A DNA stretch of 64,000 bases from positions 51,633 to 115,632 of IMG/VR virus record IMGVR_UViG_3300032046_000005. The stretch is one strand, 5' to 3'. The position numbers and the translations under genes were made by a program. A model generated the notes under the pieces. It searched no databases and had not been told where the DNA came from. It saw only the letters and a list, made by a program, of their open reading frames with translations. Source of the DNA: a virus. Below, in pieces: positions 17,801 to 60,275 of this stretch (position 1 is the first letter of the stretch; every line of letters starts with the position of its first letter).

Positions 17801-17972
17801 TTTGAAATTCTGGATCATCAAATCCACTTGGATCTATGTTATCTGCTATATTTTCTAATTCTTTTTTATGATTATCATTATCAAGTTTAAACCTACTAAT
17901 ATGACGCAATATAGAACCTATTTCTTTCTTAGCTTTGTTTTTTAAAATCTTTCTTTCTTCTAATGTTGCCAT
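14877..17972 (-). CDS. fusion of GT-B (CgeB/GT4-like) glycosyltransferase, sulfotransferase-like domain and GT2 glycosyltransferase
   Basis: IPLAIDTEIYHP and KIYETMACKT (CgeB-type); TTERCGLSW; DVICPVY...FVFVHSDV...RNED (GT2). Confidence 0.7.
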   Translation of the reverse strand: MATLEERKILKNKAKKEIGSILRHISRFKLDNDNHKKELENIADNIDPSGFDDPEFQKINWTNEVIEQNLLYCMGIFIKYNLDNNLRDRLKWLISNTYTSIPKIKEDLKVFEKKIEIKHITEEKQKIEEKSKSTLEEIKQKKEEIKQKEIKQKIEKISKVIVLNKILIIGPSIAESCHFSEGIKIAFEKLGKEVKYISPHDLYDEYFDRHWMQQKHYPLSIILQKYSFYPDLILIDECNFLWKNDVSIPVFYHHREYKRPPEVDYPDVIFLWHGVVMNYFEKIFAPFWMYNVPYHEIIPLAIDTEIYHPEEKKYDRITGIGFRETIEYIEKANEITMVPIAHILYNEWEEFKKLGFRCFDTPISNIEYREILPKCEALFVNIATQQYLSHKIYETMACKTLCIIKLENETHKQILENAGFIAGKHYIAIKALNEIKEVYDQTQNKQEIVENAYKKILKDNTYIENAKYITKLFFKLTPNILKNRTIEYKNDPGDLNILISTTERCGLSWFCRYVSLIYEKMYKKRKVWNTRISRLEVAHPDYPSPKGWNAVNYVPIKDIVKKPHDRIILLQRKFESWKESMLFYYYNEYKPNLDYKTDKDNPEYKVWFDRIAEYYNQTYDEIDSPKVLRIYIEDLNNYTVATFTEIFNFLDFPKEGRPIIIPVNTPERVWEAFSADFNAGDLINERLQKLHSKYSNTKLEFKTNKKTITPAIDYITTEETEGYETTPMEKEMQKGETFTMNPFLTTIDTLKILDKEKFDVICPVYWINTDFFVDNVKSWIKEIPVKRIIFGINRSIKDFDFEEVIKYKIRPIIPPNIEIQVIDQRKYKTLGMCLVELMKLVQNWFVFVHSDVRLTKGSFRVMQKHAKPDIGIIESERIFFDGKTYKRGKTHYTKRSYSGFQLIQKESIKDLIDEIEDDFIYRNEDLIFQSRCKQNGFKYKKVWAWHVHQILETKQTFNEKDTMFMQWHGLVKYTQPDEITKEVCWAPIEVCLTKWGQVLSQILAFTWQHNPNWGELIIEKWNQYKIGKVRK

Positions 17973-23507: not shown

Positions 23508-25445
23508 TTATTTTTTGACTTTTTTATCAAAATCTTTTCGTTGATACATATAACTTGGACTATTTTCTATTTGTTTTTGTAATCGTTCGCTTCGTTCTCG
23601 TAATCTATCCATCGTTTCGTTCCATTCGTCCATTCTTTCTTTAAAAAAGTTTTTGTTATGCATCATGATTTCCATAAATCGTTGATTTTCTAACGATTCT
23701 TGTATCCAATCAATGTTATCAAAATCTTGTATTCCTTTCACTGGTTTATTTCTAACAGCTTTTTCTGGTTTGCCCGTTCTCACGGTTTTTGTTCGTTCAG
23801 GAGTGATTTTTTGATCTTCATTTACTTTTTTTTCTACTTTTTCTCCTTTTCCTTGTCCTTGTTCATTACCTTGTCCTTGTGGTGGCAATAACAACTGTGG
23901 ATTTTTCTTGAATTGTTCGAATTGCATCATAGCTTGCTCGTATTGCATGCCCATTAATTTCTTTTGAATTTTGACCATTTTTGTTTGAACTTTTGCTTGT
24001 TCTAGTTGTTCTCGCATTAATTGTTCAGTTAATCGTTGCTGTTCGGTTTTATGCAAGTCCAAGTTCCAACGCAATGTCACATTACCTAAGTCTGGAAAAT
24101 GACACATGTTCTGCAAAATATCCATTATGTCATCCGTTATGTCCATTTGTAATGTAGACAGGTTTGAAGCCAAGTAATCTTCTTTTGAAACTAACGCACC
24201 TGCGCCTTCAAGACCCCCACCTTCCGCTCTTCCAAATAATTGGTTCTTAGGTATGATCCAAGCACTCGAAATGTCTTCTCTCAAGAATTCGAGATATGAA
24301 TCAATACCTTCTCCAATCTTGCCTGCCGCATTCATGAGTTTAAAATCCATGTTCTTTCCAAATATATAGAACTTGTTTGCTCTCATTTTAGCAAATAAAT
24401 CGAGATATTTCTGAGTCAATTCAGCAGAAGGATATTCTTGAGCTACAGTTGCTCCCACTAATACTGTTCCAAGTTGAGATAATGATCGTAATATGTAATA
24501 ACAAGTATTTAGATAACAGATTAACGGAATCCAACACAATTCCGGTATTGCAATACCTCTCAAACCTCCTTCTACTTTTCTTGTTTCTAAAACATGAACT
24601 CTTGAATGATGTATGGTCGTTTGAGTAGGCACTCCACCAATATAATCCCATTTCGATTTGTCATAATCTAATCTTGCGTTATCAAAAATGTTCATTGGAG
24701 TCATATAATAACAACTAAACGCATCAAAATCAATTGGTCTGGTTCTAGGAGCAGATTTATCCATTCTCTCTACTCCTTTTTCTCCTCTATAATATCCAAT
24801 CAAATGTCCTAATCCGGTCATTCGTTCGAAATAAACCGTATCAGTTATGTGATCCCATAAATGTGTCTGATTCATCCATTTCAAAATAGTCATTATTTCA
24901 GGAGTTTTGATTTCTTTATCAGGATCATCATAATTCACGAAAGAAAAACGATTTCTAAACGCATCCTTCGCTACTGAATAACAACCTCTATGTGCAACTC
25001 CCAATCGTTGAGTACACATTACCACGAGATGAGAAACGGGAATTCTTCCATAGTCGTAAACATAATCTCCTCCTCCTGGAGTTCCGTAAAAATCGTCAAG
25101 AGGAGTATAATAAGATTGAAAGTCTGATGTAATGCTTTCAAATTTTTCTTTAATTCCATCTCCTAACGGAATCCGGTAATCTTTTCCATAACCTTGAGGA
25201 ATTCCTAAAAACTTGTAAAAATCTTTAGTTAATCCCCATTCGTCCGTTTTTTCGTTTTCTTGTTTAAGTTTGCTTTTAATAAGTGCTTCGTCTAAAACTT
25301 CAATGTAGTCTCGTGGTTTCTTGATTTCATCTGAAAAACCGTATTCTTTCGCAACTTTATCGTGTCGCTTTTTTACATCAGAAGAAGTGAATCCGCCTAG
25401 TTTAGATTGAAATCCTTTCGAACCTTTTTTACTTATACCTGTCAT
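23508..25445 (-). CDS. portal protein (DUF1073-like)
   Basis: ERMTGLG, IHHSRV, G...PE, SAWIIPKNQLFG..GG, C-terminal coiled coil; lies downstream of the terminase on the same strand. Confidence 0.75.
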   Translation of the reverse strand: MTGISKKGSKGFQSKLGGFTSSDVKKRHDKVAKEYGFSDEIKKPRDYIEVLDEALIKSKLKQENEKTDEWGLTKDFYKFLGIPQGYGKDYRIPLGDGIKEKFESITSDFQSYYTPLDDFYGTPGGGDYVYDYGRIPVSHLVVMCTQRLGVAHRGCYSVAKDAFRNRFSFVNYDDPDKEIKTPEIMTILKWMNQTHLWDHITDTVYFERMTGLGHLIGYYRGEKGVERMDKSAPRTRPIDFDAFSCYYMTPMNIFDNARLDYDKSKWDYIGGVPTQTTIHHSRVHVLETRKVEGGLRGIAIPELCWIPLICYLNTCYYILRSLSQLGTVLVGATVAQEYPSAELTQKYLDLFAKMRANKFYIFGKNMDFKLMNAAGKIGEGIDSYLEFLREDISSAWIIPKNQLFGRAEGGGLEGAGALVSKEDYLASNLSTLQMDITDDIMDILQNMCHFPDLGNVTLRWNLDLHKTEQQRLTEQLMREQLEQAKVQTKMVKIQKKLMGMQYEQAMMQFEQFKKNPQLLLPPQGQGNEQGQGKGEKVEKKVNEDQKITPERTKTVRTGKPEKAVRNKPVKGIQDFDNIDWIQESLENQRFMEIMMHNKNFFKERMDEWNETMDRLRERSERLQKQIENSPSYMYQRKDFDKKVKK

Positions 25446-26944: not shown

Positions 26945-27214
26945 TTAAATCTTTTCTTTTTCTAGTTTTCTTGTTTCATTGTCAATTCCATTGAAAGTTT
27001 CAACAGATAAAGGTTTAATTCCTTTTATGTTTTGTTTCAATTTGATCGTTTTCCATTTCTTTTCTTTTTTCCTTTTTGCCGTTTCGAACAAATTATCGGA
27101 ATGTTTTTTGGCAATATTGTCAACAGGACAATATCTTAACGTGTTGGGATATTCGTTTTCACACTTGAAACAAGTCCAAGTGTGCGATTTTTCGGGTTTT
27201 TTATCTAATATCAT
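26945..27214 (-). CDS. RanBP2-like Zn-finger protein
   Basis: WTCFKCENEYPNTLRYCP. Confidence 0.5.
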   Translation of the reverse strand: MILDKKPEKSHTWTCFKCENEYPNTLRYCPVDNIAKKHSDNLFETAKRKKEKKWKTIKLKQNIKGIKPLSVETFNGIDNETRKLEKEKI

Positions 27215-27551
27215 GTCATAACAATATTTTTATGTTTATCTATGTATTGATTTATTGTTTTTTTTAACTAATAATTTCATTATTTTATTGATTTTAGAAT
27301 GTTCATTTTTAAATGATTTTAAAATACATGTAAAAATCATATCAATAAGTTTATATATTTTAGTTAACTTTATATAATCATGACTTTAAAAAAGGACATT
27401 AGGAAGTGGATAATTCTAGATAATTTCACGAGACTTATTCTATGAAGATATTTAAAAATGCAATTTCATTGTGAATCTTTACAATATGGAGCCTAACCTT
27501 AATTGAAAAGTCTAAAATTTAATTTAAAATGAGATGATATATATTAAAAAA

Positions 27552-27700
27552 GCAGAGGTGGTAGAGTGGACGAATACGCCAGACTTAAGATGTATATATC
27601 GGTTATGGGCGACACTAAGGACGAAACTCAAGTCCACCTTTAGTATCGTGAGAAATCTGGTACACAGGACACATCGCAGGTTCAAATCCTGCCCTCTGCA
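27552..27700 (+). tRNA. tRNA-Leu(TAA) with 65-nt canonical 37/38 intron (27590-27654)
   Basis: Acceptor GCAGAGG/CCTCTGC+A; anticodon stem CCAGA/TCTGG; T-arm GCAGG-TTCAAAT-CCTGC; BHB central helix CTTA/TGAG with bulges AG^A and AA^A; the long variable arm pairs poorly. Confidence 0.85.
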
Positions 27701-27710
27701 TGTTAATATT

Positions 27711-27858
27711 GGTAGAGTGTCAGAATGGTTAATGGGCTCGACTGGAAGTTTCGAATCGAAATTCTGAGAGAATCGAATTTCCGAGAACGCTATTCCCGAG
27801 AGTTGAAATCGAGTTGTCCCTTAAATGTGGATTGGAGGTTCAAGTCCTCCCTCTACCG
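27711..27858 (+). tRNA. tRNA-Ser(TGA) with 60-nt non-canonical 32/33 intron (27743-27802)
   Basis: Acceptor GGTAGAG/CTCTACC+G; stem CTCGA/TCGAG; T-arm GGAGG-TTCAAGT-CCTCC; long variable arm; BHB CTCG/CGAG with bulges AC^T and AG^T and inner helix GGAA/TTCC. Confidence 0.85.
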
Positions 27859-27867
27859 TTTTTTTTT
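27859..27867 (+). terminator. oligo-T terminator of the tRNA pair
   Basis: T9 run directly after the tRNA-Ser discriminator base. Confidence 0.6.
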
Positions 27868-27912
27868 GTTTGAACAAATAAATTCAAATATTAAATAAGA
27901 TTATTAATATAT

Positions 27913-28242
27913 ATGAAAAGTCTAAAATTTACATTATTAAAAGAAAAATTAATTTCAGGAGAAAAAGATCAAACGTTCCGATGTTTGTTTGTGCCTAATT
28001 ACGATGTTGGAGAAGTAATTAACATAAAATTTCAAGATGAAATTTTGTATCAAGCAATTATAAAAGAAATATATCCCAAACAGATAAAGGATTTGTCTTT
28101 TGAAGAAGCAAAACGAGATGGTTTTGATTCAATACAAGAAATGCAAGATAAAGTAATGGAATTGAACAAAGTAAAAAACTTGAATCGGTGGGGATTTGTA
28201 ATACAATTTAAAAAAATACTTAGTATTGATACTTTTTTATGA
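27913..28242 (+). CDS. ASCH (PUA-like) domain protein
   Basis: LISGEKDQTFR, VGE, EEAKRDGF. Confidence 0.8.
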   Translation: MKSLKFTLLKEKLISGEKDQTFRCLFVPNYDVGEVINIKFQDEILYQAIIKEIYPKQIKDLSFEEAKRDGFDSIQEMQDKVMELNKVKNLNRWGFVIQFKKILSIDTFL

Positions 28243-28417
28243 AAAACAATATATTTAAATATTATGAATTATATATACTTATCATGATAAAAGAAAAATT
28301 ATTGTTAAATTTAGCAGAATTAAATAGAGCATTGATTTTTCACAAAAACGAATTCAAGAAAAATGAAATCAATTTCTTGAACTTGAAAAAAGAAAAAATA
28401 AAGAAGATGATAATCAA

Positions 28418-28690
28418 ATGAACGAAGAAAAAAAGCCTGGAAAAAAACCTGGATTCAAGAAAAAAGCTTCTGTTCTCTTGAACATGGAAAGAGAAGAGTT
28501 AGAAGCTCTTGATAACATGATTCAAAAACAAAACTTTGAATCATTGTATAAACTGAAAAATGACAAAGAATTTCCAACATTATCAAAAGCAAAAGCTAAG
28601 AAAAAAATTTCTGGATTGTTAATAAACAGAAACAAGCGAATCCGAAACTTAATTATAGATGAAACAAACAAGTTTTCAGTAAAAAAATAA
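28418..28690 (+). CDS. hypothetical, possibly RHH-like regulator
   Basis: SVLLNMEREELEALD...NRNKRIRNLI. Confidence 0.45.
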   Translation: MNEEKKPGKKPGFKKKASVLLNMEREELEALDNMIQKQNFESLYKLKNDKEFPTLSKAKAKKKISGLLINRNKRIRNLIIDETNKFSVKK

Positions 28691-28700
28691 GGTATGAAAA

Positions 28701-28913
28701 ATGACAAACGAAAAGAAAACCATAATTACAAATCCTTTTAAAATATTGATTGACAACATGCATAAAACCATACTTGATATTGTAAAAATATTAGAAAAAA
28801 TGCCTGAAATGTTGTTAGAATCAGTTAAGAACAACAAGGATTATGTAATTGCAAGAATAAACAAGAAAATGATCGAATATCGAAACTTAAAAAAATTCGT
28901 CAAGACATTGTGA
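28701..28913 (+). CDS. hypothetical protein
   Basis: ORF track; AAGGT RBS. Confidence 0.45.
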   Translation: MTNEKKTIITNPFKILIDNMHKTILDIVKILEKMPEMLLESVKNNKDYVIARINKKMIEYRNLKKFVKTL

Positions 28914-29215
28914 TCGATCTCATAAAATCGTTAAAAACGCTACAAATCAACGATCAAGATTTAGAAAAAAAACTAAATCAATTAAATAATTTTTTATTTT
29001 CTACTTTTGAAATCATCGATAATACGATTAAAAACGTTGATTTAAAGTTTGCAAAAACAATTCAAAAAATCGACAATTTATTTTTTCAACTTAACATGAT
29101 CGAAAATAAATATCAAAATAAAAAACAAATATTACAAAAACAAACTATTTTACAAAAAGAATTGCTTGATTTATTAGAGAAAAGCATTCAAAAAAGAGAA
29201 AAAAAAGCTATTTAA
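28910..29215 (+). CDS. hypothetical coiled-coil protein
   Basis: ORF track; GTGA overlap with the previous gene. Confidence 0.45.
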   Translation: MIDLIKSLKTLQINDQDLEKKLNQLNNFLFSTFEIIDNTIKNVDLKFAKTIQKIDNLFFQLNMIENKYQNKKQILQKQTILQKELLDLLEKSIQKREKKAI

Positions 29216-29218
29216 GAT

Positions 29219-29401
29219 TTAAGTAACATCAACATATCCTTCAAACTCTTCGATTTTACCAATTACTCTTGTGTGTTTTGCGTGAGTAACATTTTGAAAG
29301 TAATTGATTCGATTCAAGTTTTCAAGATCGTCAGGATCAATTTGAATGTAAACTTTACATTTATTACAAGCCACTACTCGAATTCCTTGTTTGTTTATCA
29401 T
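29219..29401 (-). CDS. small CxxC...H..H zinc-binding protein
   Basis: ACNKCK...THAKH. Confidence 0.5.
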   Translation of the reverse strand: MINKQGIRVVACNKCKVYIQIDPDDLENLNRINYFQNVTHAKHTRVIGKIEEFEGYVDVT

Positions 29402-29642
29402 TTTTGAACACCTACACTATTATTATTGGACATTGACACTTGTTATAATCAACCATTTTAGACTTCAAAAAACACCACACCCATTGTTTTCCATCGTGAG
29501 TACAGTGTTTTTTGGAATGTTTGCAAATTATTTCCAAAAAAATCACTTTTTTTTGTTGTTAAGTATAGTATATATAATTTGATATATAAATTTATGTTTT
29601 TTAAATCAAAACATATAAATATATCTTATTATTTAATAACAT

Positions 29643-30410
29643 GTGATACAAACAAACAAAATATACAACATTGATTGTCAAGAAGGATTCAAACAATTGA
29701 ACGATAATTCGATACATTTGATTGTTACATCTCCTCCTTACAATGTCAACAAAGAATACGAAGAAAACCAAACATTTGATGATTGGTATGAACTAATGAA
29801 AGAAGTAATAAAAGAATCAAAACGAGTTCTCGTTTCTGGAGGAAGACTATGCATTAATGTAGCTAATATTGCTCGAAAACCTTATATTCCTTTAAATTAT
29901 TACATAATAGATATTTTACTTCAGATAAAATTTTTACTTAGAGGTATTATAATATGGGAAAAAGGAATATCTGGAGGAAAAAGTACAACTTGGGGATCTT
30001 GGAGATCTGCTTCTAATCCAGTTATTAGAGATGATTATGAATTTATTATTGTTTCTTGTAAAGATAAATACAAACTTGAACCAAAAGGTATTAATTCAAT
30101 TTCTTCAAAAGATTTTCTTTTTTGTTATAATGCAGTATGGCATATGAATGCAGAATCAAATCCTAATATAAATCATCCTACTCCTTTTCCAATTAATTTA
30201 CCAAAGCAATTAATAGAATTTTATACTTTTGAAAACAACATTATATTAGATCCTTTCATTGGATCAGGAACAACAGCAATTGCTGCCTTATTAACAAGAA
30301 GAAAGTTCATAGGATTCGAAAAAGAAAAAAAGTATGTTGACTTGGCAAATAAACGCATTTATCCATACTTAGGACAACAAAAAATAACAGACTTTACCAG
30401 TCATCAATAA
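29643..30410 (+). CDS. site-specific DNA amino-methyltransferase (beta class, N4C/N6A)
   Basis: IVTSPPYN catalytic motif, HPTPFP, LDPFIGSGTT SAM motif. Confidence 0.92.
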   Translation: MIQTNKIYNIDCQEGFKQLNDNSIHLIVTSPPYNVNKEYEENQTFDDWYELMKEVIKESKRVLVSGGRLCINVANIARKPYIPLNYYIIDILLQIKFLLRGIIIWEKGISGGKSTTWGSWRSASNPVIRDDYEFIIVSCKDKYKLEPKGINSISSKDFLFCYNAVWHMNAESNPNINHPTPFPINLPKQLIEFYTFENNIILDPFIGSGTTAIAALLTRRKFIGFEKEKKYVDLANKRIYPYLGQQKITDFTSHQ

Positions 30411-32196
30411 CAACTCTGCTTTTACCTCTCCTTAATTGTCTCCTAATTTCTTCTTCTTTATCTTCGGGAGTTTTGATGTTTCTATGAGTTAGATTATCTT
30501 CAAAATCAGCATACACGCTCATAATTTCTACAAATGGATCTTCACTAAGAGCAACTGGTATTTTCTGAAGTTCGTATTCTGCATTTGCCAACGCATCAAT
30601 GGCATCAAGTTTAGGATAATACGGAAACTTTAATATCTCGTTTGCAAGTTCAGAACGTTCTAATGTTGACATCATGCTTATTAATTCGTTTTTAATGGGT
30701 AATAAAAGGCGATCTTTTATTCGTTGAATTTTCTCTCCAGTATTATGCAAGTCCATGATTTCAGCATAAATAGCAATCTTGTTTGTTATTTGTTTACCAT
30801 CATGTATAAAATACACTCTAGAACGACACATTTCAATGAAATCATCTCCTCCTCCTTGTTTTTCAATTATGATTATGATTCGTATGCTTTCGTATTTTTT
30901 CTTGAATTCAATCACAAAATCGTTAATCTTTATGAGCAACTCTTCAAGCGTGGTATGTTCTGTCCAATCGTGTAATATGACTTTATGACCAGTGTTCATG
31001 TTTCTCAAACCAATCACACATCCGGTATAACTTGAAGATTGTTTCGTGGTTGTAGCTCGATCAATCGTTATGAAACAAATGTCATATTTCCGGTTAACTG
31101 GATCTTCAAGCAAGTTTATTGTCTTGATATGATCCCAAATTTCTCCTGTTATTGGGTGCGGATCTTGCTCATATTCAGAAAACCAAGCGTATTCTCCCAC
31201 GTGTTTTCTAGTTGCTTCTAAATTTATCTTTTTCTTTTTAAGATCTTTTTCAAATGAAGGTAAACTTGGATGAGTGAATAGTTCAGGACATAATAACGAT
31301 CCGTCTTCATTTCTTGTTTTTCTCTTATAAACAACTAAATCTTTACCAAATTTTTCTCCAATAAAATCAAAAAAGTCTCCTTCAAATTTATGAGTTCCCG
31401 TAAAACTCCACTTATCTGGATGAATTGGATAAAGCGAACTATTAAAATGAAGTTCAAGCGTTTCTTCTAAATGTCGTTCTTTCATGAATTTAGAATCAAT
31501 AGGATCATCAACCGAAATCCATAATTTTCGTTCTATTTTTCGTTGTTCTTCAACATATCTCTTGATTTCTTTAGGATCAAAAGCTCCATCTTCGTTATCT
31601 TCAAACATCTTTACAAAATCGTCCCAATCTTCATTAGACATGTTTTCAAAACGGTCTTGTCGACCTAATGAATGCATTCCTAGAGTATCTTTTGAAGTTA
31701 TCAAATAACAATCAAACTTGCCTCCATTTACTAACCTAAAATGAAATGGAGATGTCCTTTTATCTTTCTCAACCAATCTTTGTCGTTCAAAAAAAACATA
31801 AACTGTATATGCAATTTCTTTTCTTCGATCAGTCCATCCTAACAAAAGAACATCGTAGTTTTGGTACCACATTGCCCATTCGTATTTCCACGCGTATTCA
31901 ATTGATTTCCCATGATTACGAGGAACAAGCGTTTCTTCAAATGTAGATTCCCAAGTTAAATCGTGATGTTCTTTTTGCCATTTGAACAAACCTCTGAATT
32001 TAGGATATGTAATATATCTACAAAACTTTTCAAATCCAGGATCTTTTGTTGGAAGTGGAATTAGTTCTTCGTCTAATTCTGATTCTTCTCCATCTTTCTT
32101 TTTCTTTTTCTTTTTAGGATCGTCTTTCTTGATTATGTTTCCATTTAAATCCCATAAACCAAGCACGGTTTGTGGAGCATATTCTTCTTTAGACAA
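30394..32196 (-). CDS. terL: terminase large subunit
   Basis: WQ..H, Walker A VPRNHGKS, Walker B ISVDDP, GT coupling motif, EYEQDP, nuclease ITID...IIEKQGGG...K..RI...DAIDALA. Confidence 0.85.
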   Translation of the reverse strand: MSKEEYAPQTVLGLWDLNGNIIKKDDPKKKKKKKDGEESELDEELIPLPTKDPGFEKFCRYITYPKFRGLFKWQKEHHDLTWESTFEETLVPRNHGKSIEYAWKYEWAMWYQNYDVLLLGWTDRRKEIAYTVYVFFERQRLVEKDKRTSPFHFRLVNGGKFDCYLITSKDTLGMHSLGRQDRFENMSNEDWDDFVKMFEDNEDGAFDPKEIKRYVEEQRKIERKLWISVDDPIDSKFMKERHLEETLELHFNSSLYPIHPDKWSFTGTHKFEGDFFDFIGEKFGKDLVVYKRKTRNEDGSLLCPELFTHPSLPSFEKDLKKKKINLEATRKHVGEYAWFSEYEQDPHPITGEIWDHIKTINLLEDPVNRKYDICFITIDRATTTKQSSSYTGCVIGLRNMNTGHKVILHDWTEHTTLEELLIKINDFVIEFKKKYESIRIIIIIEKQGGGDDFIEMCRSRVYFIHDGKQITNKIAIYAEIMDLHNTGEKIQRIKDRLLLPIKNELISMMSTLERSELANEILKFPYYPKLDAIDALANAEYELQKIPVALSEDPFVEIMSVYADFEDNLTHRNIKTPEDKEEEIRRQLRRGKSRVVIDDW

Positions 32197-50657: not shown

Positions 50658-50954
50658 ATGAAGATAAATTTTGATGTTAGTAAATTAACTGCAACAACTG
50701 AAGAACTAGACGAATTTTTCAAACATCCGTTCAAACAAACAAAAATATATAACTACACGTCTGGTTTAGAAATTACTGTTTTGATAAACAACCTGAAAAA
50801 ACCAAAACACCTTTTCCTATATGACGCGTCTCTTTCCGAAAGTAAATACGATAAAAAAATGTCAGTGTTCGCTTTCTGGACCAAGCGAAGAAAAATCTTC
50901 TGGATCGCAAACATCCGAAACAAGAGATATAAAGAAGAAAATTATTTACTTTAA
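50658..50954 (+). CDS. hypothetical protein
   Basis: Leaderless behind a TATA box; T-run after the stop. Confidence 0.55.
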   Translation: MKINFDVSKLTATTEELDEFFKHPFKQTKIYNYTSGLEITVLINNLKKPKHLFLYDASLSESKYDKKMSVFAFWTKRRKIFWIANIRNKRYKEENYLL

Positions 50955-51024
50955 TGTTTTTTTTTCCTTTTTTTTTTCTAATTTTCCAAAACATTTAATT
51001 ATAATTATTCATTCATTATTTTAT

Positions 51025-52107
51025 ATGAAAAAACCATTTCAACAATTATCTTTAATAGATTTTATTAATACTCAAAAAAACCAAATAAAAAAAAAAGACC
51101 CATATCCTAATTTTTTTTTTAAAAAGAATTTAAAAGAATCTACTTTACGAAACATAAAACATATTTTTGTTAGATCATATAAAATTAAACCAGAAGAATG
51201 TGAATGTTGTCACGAAAAGAAAAAACTTGTACTTTCTTTCTTATACCATCCTCAACCTTATACTTTTAACATTGAAGATTATCGTTATTTATGCGTATCT
51301 TGTCATATGAAATATGATTTAAAAATTGGGCAAAGGAAAAGATATTCACATATAACTTCTTTAGAAACAAGAAAAAAAATATCTGAAAAAAACAAAGGAA
51401 GAATAAGTCCTATGAAAGGAAAACACCATTCTTTAGAAACTTTAGAAAAAATGAGGCAATCTTGCAAAGGAAAATCTTCAGGAATGAAAGGAAAACATCA
51501 TTCTTTAGAAGCAAAGAAAAAAATATCTGAAAAATTAAAGAAAAAAAAGAAAAAAATAATAATAGAAAAACCAATTTTAGAATCTTCAATTGATTATATT
51601 CGAAAATATATAAAAAAATATAAAATAAAAAGTAATATATGCGAAATTTGTCATAAAAATAAAAAACTTATTCTTTCATTAATTGATTATGATAAAGGTT
51701 ATACATATAATGTAAATGATTATAGATATATATGTTATTCTTGTAATTCTAAATATCTTATTAGCCAAAATCGGATTCAAATTCCTATTCATAATATTCC
51801 CCATTCTGAAGAAACTAAGAAAAAGTTGTCAATAATTAATACATCAAATCCTACAAAATCTATGTTAGGAAAACATCATTCTTTAGAAACTAAAAAGAAA
51901 ATGTCAATGTCACATAATGGAAAAAACAAACCAAATTTTGAAAATGATCCAATTAAAAAAGAAGTTGAAATGTTTTTGCATTTTAATAATGAATTAAAAA
52001 TTAATCAGTGTCCTTATTGTAAAATACATTATGAAACACGAAATAAGAATAAAATTTTCTGTTCTCAAAAATGTATGCAATTATATCACAGAAAAAAATT
52101 TTTGTGA
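51025..52107 (+). CDS. NUMOD3-repeat / duplicated HNH-like endonuclease-related protein
   Basis: Two CExCH..KKL.LS...YT.N..DYRY.C.SC domains and several KGKHHSLETKKK repeats; start set at MKKPF. Confidence 0.7.
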   Translation: MKKPFQQLSLIDFINTQKNQIKKKDPYPNFFFKKNLKESTLRNIKHIFVRSYKIKPEECECCHEKKKLVLSFLYHPQPYTFNIEDYRYLCVSCHMKYDLKIGQRKRYSHITSLETRKKISEKNKGRISPMKGKHHSLETLEKMRQSCKGKSSGMKGKHHSLEAKKKISEKLKKKKKKIIIEKPILESSIDYIRKYIKKYKIKSNICEICHKNKKLILSLIDYDKGYTYNVNDYRYICYSCNSKYLISQNRIQIPIHNIPHSEETKKKLSIINTSNPTKSMLGKHHSLETKKKMSMSHNGKNKPNFENDPIKKEVEMFLHFNNELKINQCPYCKIHYETRNKNKIFCSQKCMQLYHRKKFL

Positions 52108-58802: not shown

Positions 58803-60275
58803 ATGAAAGAATATAAATGGATTGATGTAAAGGATTTGAAATTTTCGGGATTGAGGGAAATAAGGCAACATACCGTGGAACAGATAAAGGAAAGTGTGAA
58901 GGAAAATGGATTTGACGAGGCGAGGGTATTGTTGGTAATTCCTGATACTGAAAACGGAAAGTATGTAGTAGCGGGAGGAAATCATAGGCTAAAAGCATTG
59001 ATTGAGATGAAAGTGGAAAAAGTGCCATGTTTGATCGATAACGAAGGGGATTTGTATCAACTTGCGATACAAGATAACGAAGCGGAAAAAACTTATGCGC
59101 CAATTGATTTGTTTGATTATTTGTATATGATTGAACGACTGAAAAAAGAAAATAAATCATTAAAAGAAATTAGTATAATAATTGGATGGGAAGAAAATCT
59201 TATTAAATCTTATTCTGCTTTACTCAAAAATATAGTTGCAGAATTTTTAGAGTTTTGCAAGTTGCATCAAAAAGATCGTGCATCTGAAAAAGTTGCAATT
59301 ACAACTTTTAATTTTACTGAAGGATGGTTTCGAAATAGTGGATTATATGAACTTAACGAAGAACACCAATTAAAAACAATCAAATGGTTCATTGAAGAAA
59401 AGAAATGTAAAGTATCAACAAATCAAATACAAGAAAAAACAAATGCGTTAAAAGAAATAGAAGAACAAATACAATTACTTGAAGATAATTTAGATCCAAC
59501 AATAGATGCTAAGAAATTGATTGAATCGATAGAAAACGGAGAATATACAACGGAAAGATTAGCAACGGTAATTAAAAGATTGAACGAAGGAGCAAAAGAT
59601 AAAGCGTTGTTTGGAGTAGATTGTAGAGATGAATTAAAAAAGTTAGAAGATGGTTCGATTGATTGTATGATTACTGATCCTCCTTGGGGTGTTGAATACG
59701 TGCCTTCAAGAAAAACAACTAATCCACAATTTGATAAAGAACTGAAAGAGGTATTGATTTTGCTTGATGATGTATTCAAGGAATGCAAAAGAGTATTGAA
59801 AAATAATGGACACGTTTATGTGTTCTTTCCAACAATGTTTTTTGTTGAATTTAAGAATTTGCTTGAAAAATATTTTGCAGTATATTCTATTCCATTGATT
59901 TGGTATAAAAATAATCATAATCTATGTAATTTTAAGCAAAGATATGCTTCGATTTATGAAACCGTGTTTTTTTGCAAGATGGAAAAAGGAGATTTGAGAG
60001 AACTAAATGCTAAAGTTTCACCTGATGTGTTGAAGTATGATAAACCAATGAACAAACAACACGATGCACAAAAACCAGAAGATTTATTAGAATATTTGAT
60101 AAAGAACTCAACAGGAAAAGAAGAAGTTATATTAGATCCATTCATGGGATCTGGAAGTACATTAATAGCTGCAATAAAATCTGGAAGGCATTATATTGGA
60201 TTTGAAAAAGAAAAATCATACGAATCAAACTTTAAAAGAAGAATAGGAGAAATATTAGAAGGTAAAGCTAAATAA
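58803..60275 (+). CDS. ParB/Srx-like N-terminal domain fused to DNA amino-methyltransferase
   Basis: ESVKENGF..VVAGGNHRLKAL..VPC; ITDPPW; HDAQKP; LDPFMGSGST. Confidence 0.88.
   Translation: MKEYKWIDVKDLKFSGLREIRQHTVEQIKESVKENGFDEARVLLVIPDTENGKYVVAGGNHRLKALIEMKVEKVPCLIDNEGDLYQLAIQDNEAEKTYAPIDLFDYLYMIERLKKENKSLKEISIIIGWEENLIKSYSALLKNIVAEFLEFCKLHQKDRASEKVAITTFNFTEGWFRNSGLYELNEEHQLKTIKWFIEEKKCKVSTNQIQEKTNALKEIEEQIQLLEDNLDPTIDAKKLIESIENGEYTTERLATVIKRLNEGAKDKALFGVDCRDELKKLEDGSIDCMITDPPWGVEYVPSRKTTNPQFDKELKEVLILLDDVFKECKRVLKNNGHVYVFFPTMFFVEFKNLLEKYFAVYSIPLIWYKNNHNLCNFKQRYASIYETVFFCKMEKGDLRELNAKVSPDVLKYDKPMNKQHDAQKPEDLLEYLIKNSTGKEEVILDPFMGSGSTLIAAIKSGRHYIGFEKEKSYESNFKRRIGEILEGKAK

Follow-up and report, generated by a model that had tools for sequence, protein, structure and literature searches.

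Introduction

Relaxed, non-canonical bulge-helix-bulge (BHB) introns of archaeal tRNA genes were described by Marck and Grosjean in 2003 and by Sugahara et al. in 2008, and their hBH and HBh' forms, including some in the anticodon stem and loop, are known from Crenarchaeota, Thaumarchaeota, and Nanoarchaeota (reviewed in PMC4090602). In the BHB geometry, the central helix (H) of a canonical intron includes the first two anticodon bases (PMC4090602). Relaxed motifs drop a flanking helix, not H, and the described archaeal EndA substrates all keep H (PMC4090602, PMC5829648). Non-canonical introns are cut only by the (alpha-beta)2 and epsilon2 endonucleases (PMC5829648), and tRNAscan-SE 2.0 was redesigned partly because 54 of them had been mis-annotated as canonical (PMC8450103).

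In Asgard archaea, the tRNA genes are heavily interrupted and rich in introns, and non-canonical introns occur preferentially at places that allow a BHB, with a minority of intervening sequences showing no recognisable motif (bioRxiv 10.64898/2026.10.13.758758). An (alpha-beta)2 EndA with an L1 loop has been reported from these archaea (PMC5829648). Among archaeal viruses, the haloarchaeal virus HGTV-1 carries one intron-bearing tRNA gene (PMC13532342).

The viral tRNA-Ser gene analysed here resembles the archaeal non-canonical genes in that its favoured splice motif has a 4-bp H, 3-nt cut triplets, and one flanking helix, would lie off 37/38, would need a broad-specificity EndA, and is prone to annotation as canonical. 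It differs from them in being viral, in an intron placement (32/33) that would make the naively read anticodon a different yet synonymous one, in a tandem duplication within the intron that triplicates the 3' half-site, and in being known from sequence alone. The Asgard tRNA genes and (alpha-beta)2 EndA represent the likely host lineage and machinery, but those data come from cellular genomes, whereas the present gene is viral. Like HGTV-1, the virus appears to be an archaeal head-tailed virus with tRNA genes of which at least one has an intron for host enzymes to remove; unlike that virus, which infects haloarchaea, it has an interruption in both of its tRNAs and a probably non-canonical position for one of the introns. 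We know of no statement that calls the HGTV-1 tRNA intron non-canonical. Finally, the BHB intron of crenarchaeal cbf5 (PMC2738675) has the same motif as an insert in a methyltransferase gene of this virus, and the same removing enzymes would apply; that comparison concerns mRNA and bears on the tRNA-Ser only through motif type and cut geometry.

Results

The Virus and Its Likely Host

The IMG/VR record comprises 115.6 kb with 28.8% G+C and a completeness estimate of 71%; the window is the 64-kb stretch of it that was analysed here. The virus is a tailed one, with a portal gene (23508-25445) and a large terminase gene (30394-32196) in the window. Of the terminase relatives with a source name, the one named after a virus is a protein from Lokiarchaeota virus Skoll Meg22_1214, which is 58% identical across 98% of the query, and sediment-metagenome proteins without a source name reach up to 66% identity. 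Skoll has been handled as a Lokiarchaeales virus (PMC13700489). By terminase similarity only, we assign the virus to a putative Asgard, probably Lokiarchaeial, host.

Neither the splicing endonuclease EndA (PF01974) nor RtcB (PF01139) is encoded in the virus record, so that any splicing would depend on host enzymes. The first-pass annotation had held that relaxed, non-canonical motifs require an (alpha-beta)2 or epsilon2 EndA, in agreement with PMC5829648, and that the tRNA-Ser motif thereby constrains the host lineage. The latter idea is consistent with the Skoll-like terminase (58%) and the reported Asgard (alpha-beta)2 EndA, the host itself being a presumed one.

A terminase search of metagenome contigs revealed 21 related loci, and the same search of viral contigs, with the single sequence and with a 23-protein alignment, gave no relatives. 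Among genome contigs the sole match (52% identity) was a 15-kb contig, JAAEQR010000285.1, of a MAG labelled 'PVC group bacterium'. This contig (L024) is probably a mis-binned fragment of an archaeal virus, because the other tRNAs of the MAG are short and of bacterial type. GenBank phages contained no DNA match, and their terminase matches were remote Gordonia-phage ones only.

Two Interrupted tRNA Genes in One Cassette

The only RNA genes that Rfam detected in the window were two tRNAs, each with a large insert in its anticodon loop, and the whole 115.6-kb record held no tRNAs beyond tRNA-Leu at 27552-27700 and tRNA-Ser at 27711-27858. ARAGORN reported no tRNA in default mode; in intron mode it called tRNA-Leu(taa) and tRNA-Ser(gga). 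The two genes are of type II, with long variable arms, and lie 10 nt apart. The discriminator base is A in the first and G in the second; in archaea, A73 marks Leu and G73 marks Ser. The cassette and its surroundings contain the following features:

27504 to 27526, + strand: direct repeat copy 1 (23 nt), upstream of the tRNA cassette; repeat search
27552 to 27700, + strand: tRNA-Leu(UAA) with discriminator A; Rfam 47.5 bits, BHB scans, and ARAGORN -i
27590 to 27654, + strand: tRNA-Leu intron of 65 nt at canonical position 37/38; strict hBHBh' motif
27914 to 27936, + strand: direct repeat copy 2 (21/23 identical); repeat search

The tRNA-Leu intron is framed by a central helix CUUA/UGAG, an outer helix of 6 bp, and an inner helix of 2 bp. 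Some 30 nt ahead of the 5' end of tRNA-Leu, repeat copy 1 includes a TATA-like stretch rich in A/T; copy 2 overlaps the ATG and first codons of an ORF at 27913-28242. The copies are spaced 410 nt apart, and an exact 15-mer of the repeat is found at only these two places in the window. This bracketing suggests either insertion of the cassette with target duplication or a duplicated promoter/5' end.

Comparison with a related metagenome locus (L010:3521-3771) disclosed that the terminase gene and a homologue of ORF 26945-27214 are there separated by 155 nt. The same interval in the present virus (27215-30393) is a 3.2-kb block on the opposite strand with small ORFs and both tRNAs. An Rfam scan of 20 of the 21 related loci found no tRNA. 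Because the block is absent from L010 and none of the 20 scanned loci has a tRNA, the cassette looks like a recent, lineage-specific acquisition. Exact-pattern scans of IMG/VR with the tRNA-Ser 3' exon and 5' exon returned 0 matches, and thus neither these scans nor the 20 loci contained a homologue of the tRNA-Ser gene.

Other IMG/VR patterns were discarded. The 3' half-site joined to the exon gave 27 chance matches, 0 of them in a tRNA; the mature anticodon arm with K at position 34 matched phage tRNA-Ser of bacterial type with both anticodons and was uninformative; and the tRNA-Leu 3' exon found one unrelated phage tRNA.

In a second sediment run, a 386-nt contig matches 34 nt of the tRNA-Leu intron (27600-27633) with 3 differences, and the sequence on either side of the match (…GGACUUAAG… and …GAAAUCCGA…) resembles the anticodon arm of another tRNA-Leu(UAA). 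That sediment therefore appears to contain another genome whose tRNA-Leu has a partly homologous intron, which hints that intron-bearing tRNA genes may be exchanged between genomes there. No larger element shared with both introns was found in the genome, where their 11-mers recur as a few isolated matches of 11-12 nt. As a separate observation, an ORF at 50821-52107 of the window has four NUMOD3 motifs (Pfam, 1.1e-19) and a weak homing-endonuclease PHROG match, and is a possible free-standing homing endonuclease.

Parts of the tRNA-Ser Gene

The tRNA-Ser gene scores 40.6 bits against RF00005 (gathering score 29) and has a 7-bp acceptor stem, a 5-bp T stem, a long variable arm with a 17-nt insertion at the variable region of the alignment, and discriminator G at 27858. 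The anticodon stem CUCGA/UCGAG (27737-41 and 27809-13) encloses 67 nt. Either splicing register discussed below gives an NGA anticodon, as expected of the tRNA-Ser class. Its parts, placed according to the 32/33 register favoured here, are as follows, with a slash in a bulge marking the cut:

27711 to 27742, + strand: 5' exon, tRNA positions 1-32 (acceptor 5' strand, D arm, anticodon-stem 5' strand, C32); Rfam alignment and register table
27737 to 27740, + strand: CUCG, 5' strand of the proposed central helix H and also of the mature anticodon stem; register table
27741 to 27743, + strand: 5' bulge A-C/U, predicted cut 27742/27743; register table, geometry as in the methyltransferase intron
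27743 to 27802, + strand: putative 60-nt intron at position 32/33; BHB scan and register table
27744 to 27747, + strand: GGAA, 5' strand of the intron helix h'; pairs with UUCC at 27793-27796
27753 to 27786, + strand: 17-nt tandem duplication in the intron, 2.0 copies with 88% matches; TRF and BHB scan
27793 to 27796, + strand: UUCC, 3' strand of h'; register table
27797 to 27800, + strand: CGAG, predicted 3' strand of H; copies the CGAG of the 3' anticodon-stem strand (27810-13)
27801 to 27803, + strand: 3' bulge A-G/U, predicted cut 27802/27803; register table
27803 to 27858, + strand: 3' exon with U33, predicted anticodon UGA (27804-27806), A37, and A38, continuing through the 3' anticodon stem, long variable arm, T arm, and acceptor 3' strand to discriminator G; Rfam alignment and register table
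27859 to 27867, + strand: nine-T run directly after the discriminator, a likely transcription stop; sequence

The nine-T run is longer by two T in a strain from the second sample, and CCA is not encoded. Since 27743 and 27803 are both T, an intron at 33/34 would give the same product as one at 32/33.

With 60 nt, the insert is far from the at least 200 nt expected of a group I or II self-splicing intron, and Rfam shows only tRNA; this candidate was rejected. The insert is structured and bears a repeat, features that would also suit a retained functional arm, in which the 60 nt are no intron and the transcript is a tRNA-shaped, Y-RNA-like non-coding RNA. An E-value-mode Rfam scan of 27450-27950 (E up to 1) returned the two tRNAs only, with no Y RNA or YrlA (RF02553). 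The splice motif of the insert is moreover precise, a textbook BHB surrounds the insert of the adjacent tRNA-Leu, and the setting is archaeal rather than eukaryotic; a retained arm is extremely improbable.

Selection of the Splicing Register

All pairs of cut sites were scored for a BHB motif, defined after PMC4090602 by four central pairs, 3-nt bulges cut between bases 2 and 3, and flanking helices. A 7-nt loop remains in tRNA-Ser only after removal of 60 nt, and 13 registers (cuts after 27738 to 27750) were scored for this removal. The central helix formed in 1 of the 13, that with the cut after 27742, where CUCG/CGAG provides four Watson-Crick pairs. This motif has bulges ACU and AGU, a 4-bp inner helix GGAA/UUCC, and an outer helix of one G.U pair. 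Closing pairs lie on either side of the 5' bulge ACU, and the 3' triplet AGU has H on one side and the lone exon-side G.U (27736-27804) on the other; given that the exon-side helix is this single pair, the 3' cut site lies outside a closed bulge. The register table thus bears out the cuts at 27742/27743 and 27802/27803 that the first-pass annotation had proposed on the grounds of a perfect 4-bp helix, two 3-nt bulges, and a GGAA/TTCC stem, as well as its description of the outer helix as weak and of the BHB as relaxed.

Excision at 32/33 would join CUCGAC/UUGAAAUCGAG and produce the arm CUCGA-CUUGAAA-UCGAG, a standard 7-nt loop with U33 and a purine at 37. Around the possible junctions there are only two product classes, as cuts after 27742 or 27743 yield CUUGAAA (anticodon UGA) and cuts after 27744 to 27747 yield CUGGAAA (GGA). 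A search of sequencing runs found the locus in no RNA run, and the contigs aligned to it contained no joints.

The naive reading is a tRNA-Ser(GGA) with a canonical 37/38 intron of 60 nt, as ARAGORN -i calls it and as had been noted from the sequence before. An endonuclease would then have to accept the flanking helices despite a degenerate central helix. At the 37/38 register (cuts 27747/48 and 27807/08), the two strands CUGG/GUUG oppose C-G, UxU, G.U, and GxG, so that 2 of 4 positions pair, which matches the earlier statement that this register lacks a central helix. With only a C-G and a G.U, it fails even the relaxed 3-of-4 rule, and the described archaeal EndA substrates all retain helix H (PMC4090602). 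The flanking elements are well formed: 7 bp make up the outer helix and 5 bp (UUUCG/CGAGA) the inner one, with the canonical spacing of 7 nt between the two on each strand, and only the central helix is missing. The inner helix uses the same CGAG (27797-800) as the central helix of the 32/33 motif. In addition, no other intron position comes near 37/38 in frequency (PMC8450103), and some Asgard intervening sequences have no recognisable motif (bioRxiv 10.64898/2026.10.13.758758).

To set the 32/33 motif against chance, 100,000 dinucleotide-preserving shuffles of the 67 nt were scored with the criterion of four Watson-Crick central pairs and an intron helix of at least 4 bp. An equally good motif at any of seven non-canonical registers occurred in 0.29% of shuffles. 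If the intron were at 37/38, the perfect CUCG/CGAG and GGAA/UUCC five bases upstream would be a coincidence of that order (~0.3%). The intron ends carry near-copies, UGGAA (27743-47) and UUGAA (27803-07), which differ only at the position-34 base. The upstream copy fits the intron role, as its G27744 pairs with C27796, and the downstream copy is unfit for the central-helix pairing with CUGG that 37/38 requires. It is G27744 that the naive GGA reading takes for G34. The same scoring found the strict hBHBh' motif of tRNA-Leu at 37/38, which served as an internal positive control.

Thermodynamics does not favour the 32/33 motif. In the predicted fold of the naked RNA at 37 C, the 32/33 central helix had a probability of ~0.003, and the anticodon stem (0.87) and the UUUCG/CGAGA helix (0.53) dominated. 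With the cloverleaf enforced, the 32/33 structure reached -36.6 kcal/mol and the 37/38-frame structure -38.8 kcal/mol, a difference of 2.2 kcal/mol that makes the 37/38 frame the preferred local fold in these models and speaks for Ser(GGA). Any intron in the anticodon stem-loop faces such a competition of folds, since its motif makes use of the stem's own 5' strand.

Because of the helix-H requirement, the near-copies at the boundaries, and the methyltransferase insert used as a calibrator below, we favour the 32/33 register. A tRNA-Ser(UGA) made by one-step excision of a relaxed HBh' intron at 32/33 is the probable reading, and Ser(GGA) from a 37/38 intron is distinctly unlikely. The anticodon UGA in a loop CU-UGA-AA, as first annotated, is thus the best-supported assignment, the 32/33 register being the only one with a central helix.

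The suggestion that both junctions could be used was not supported: the 4-bp helix cannot form at 37/38, and so alternative splicing to GGA has no structural basis. It would take two 60-nt excisions five bases apart, one directed by the 32/33 motif (UGA) and one by the 37/38-frame helices (GGA), for one gene to yield two Ser isoacceptors, and we hold this to be highly improbable. If true, the products together would read UCU, UCC, UCA, and UCG, as a case of alternative tRNA splicing that changes the anticodon, and the triplicated 3' half-sites could tune the share of precursor on the productive path.

A Methyltransferase-Gene Insert as Calibrator

Outside the window, a DNA methyltransferase gene (genome 17798-19268, L052:799-2269) is split by a 22-nt BHB-type insert (17900-17921) located just after its SPPY motif. 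In the insert, CCGU/GCGG forms the central helix, with AUU and AAU as bulges; the intron helix has 6 bp, and an exon helix is absent. A cut between bulge bases 2 and 3 restores ...SPPY/WFLRDY... in frame. Exon 1 aligns to motif IV of a paralogue in the window, and exon 2 corresponds to PF01555 (1.9e-34).

The tRNA-Ser motif shares this architecture, with a central helix, an intron helix, and an exon helix that is absent or nearly so. Since removal of the 22-nt insert restores the frame, the host must process HBh'-type motifs, and the cut geometry used in the scoring is borne out. An intron of tRNA type in a protein-coding gene of a virus would be a rarer thing than the tRNA result itself. The window also contains a second methyltransferase gene (58803-60275), without an insert, in which a ParB-N-like domain is fused to an N6/N4 DNA methyltransferase (PF01555, 8.9e-31).

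Duplicated Half-Sites in the Intron

At the end of each copy of the 17-nt duplication stands UUC-YGAG-A, which resembles the 3' half of the splice motif and creates alternative, non-productive 3' sites at 27770/71 and 27787/88. The BHB scan accordingly listed two further intron half-sites (CGAG/UGAG) that compete for the CUCG strand. Through these duplicated ends, CUCG has three possible partners in the intron in addition to its mature partner, and a functional loop results from the third intron partner alone.

These half-sites could be read as steps on the way to tRNA-Ser(UGA), with a first excision between the single 5' site and 27770/71 or 27787/88 and, once the ends are ligated, removal of a smaller intron, for example one of 15 nt (27788-27802). 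Closely spaced introns with an obligatory order of removal are known (PMC8450103). CUCG can pair over 4 bp with UGAG (27765-68) and CGAG (27782-85), each half-site precedes a 3-nt A-rich stretch and follows a strand that pairs with GGAA, and in the full-length fold no pairing is more probable than CUC/GAG (27783-85), at 0.63. That pairing, however, belongs to a plain hairpin with a one-sided 4-nt bulge and not to a BHB, and the half-sites are more simply explained as by-products of the tandem duplication. By hand inspection, the motifs re-formed after a first excision have an intron helix of 0-1 bp. We rank the stepwise path low for this near-absence of an intron helix and consider it very unlikely.

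Functionality and Codon Use

All stems of the tRNA-Ser are intact in the Rfam alignment. A strain from the second sediment run, represented by an 880-nt contig, shows ~10 differences in ~405 nt of flank (about 2.5%), 0 differences in the 148-nt Ser gene, and 1 in the Leu gene, at intron position 27592. The Poisson probability is 0.026 for Ser alone and 0.005 for both genes. This is modest evidence for constraint on the tRNA genes, and the tRNA-Ser gene looks functional.

The opposite case is that of a non-productive gene, a decaying copy acquired together with tRNA-Leu whose intron was scrambled by the tandem duplication. It would be in keeping with the two decoy 3' half-sites made by the 17-nt duplication, with the rarity of the splice motif in the predicted ensemble, and with the position of the gene in a 3.2-kb lineage-specific block that L010 lacks and that has no tRNA counterpart in the related loci scanned. 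Against it stand the intact stems with an Rfam score well above threshold, the 148 nt identical between two strains at ~2.5% flank divergence, and a perfect motif exactly where a 7-nt loop with U33 and A37 results. A non-productive gene is therefore unlikely.

UCA is the commonest Ser codon of the virus (30%), with UCA and UCG together at 42% versus 31% for UCU and UCC, and UUA makes up 45% of Leu codons, which matches Leu(UAA). Codon usage thus leans weakly to UGA; the argument is weak because UCU is nearly as frequent as UCA.

Discussion

The proposed route to the tRNA-Ser(UGA) begins with a precursor in which the 5' strand of the anticodon stem, CUCG, would pair with an intron copy of its normal partner, CGAG at 27797-800. 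GGAA/UUCC would flank this helix on the intron side and place the cut sites in the triplets A-C/U and A-G/U, giving an HBh'-type relaxed BHB with almost no exon-side helix. The host splicing endonuclease, presumably the broad-specificity (alpha-beta)2 EndA of an Asgard host, would cut both sites, and a host RtcB-type ligase would join the exons; host enzymes are assumed for both steps because the virus has neither. In the resulting loop, CU-UGA-AA, the naive G34 would be gone, being an intron base paired in h'. The tRNA-Ser would be co-transcribed with tRNA-Leu(UAA), and the pair may serve the most used Ser and Leu codons of the virus, UCA and UUA.

A non-exhaustive search of the literature gave no non-canonical tRNA intron in an archaeal virus and no tRNA intron in an Asgard virus. 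The intron is of a known kind in a new, viral setting. Crenarchaeota, Thaumarchaeota, and Asgard archaea are well-known carriers of introns of this type, so what is new here is the context and not the mechanism.

For annotation, the locus illustrates that tRNA surveys of viral metagenomes can miss such genes, as ARAGORN did in default mode, or mislabel the anticodon (GGA for UGA). One genome further offers a compact natural substrate set for the specificity of Asgard EndA, with one strict BHB and two motifs of the HBh' type. If the reading is confirmed, an Asgard-type archaeal virus with archaeal splice signals would rely on a broad-specificity endonuclease and a ligase of its host, and such introns would provide an independent marker of host lineage for uncultured archaeal viruses.
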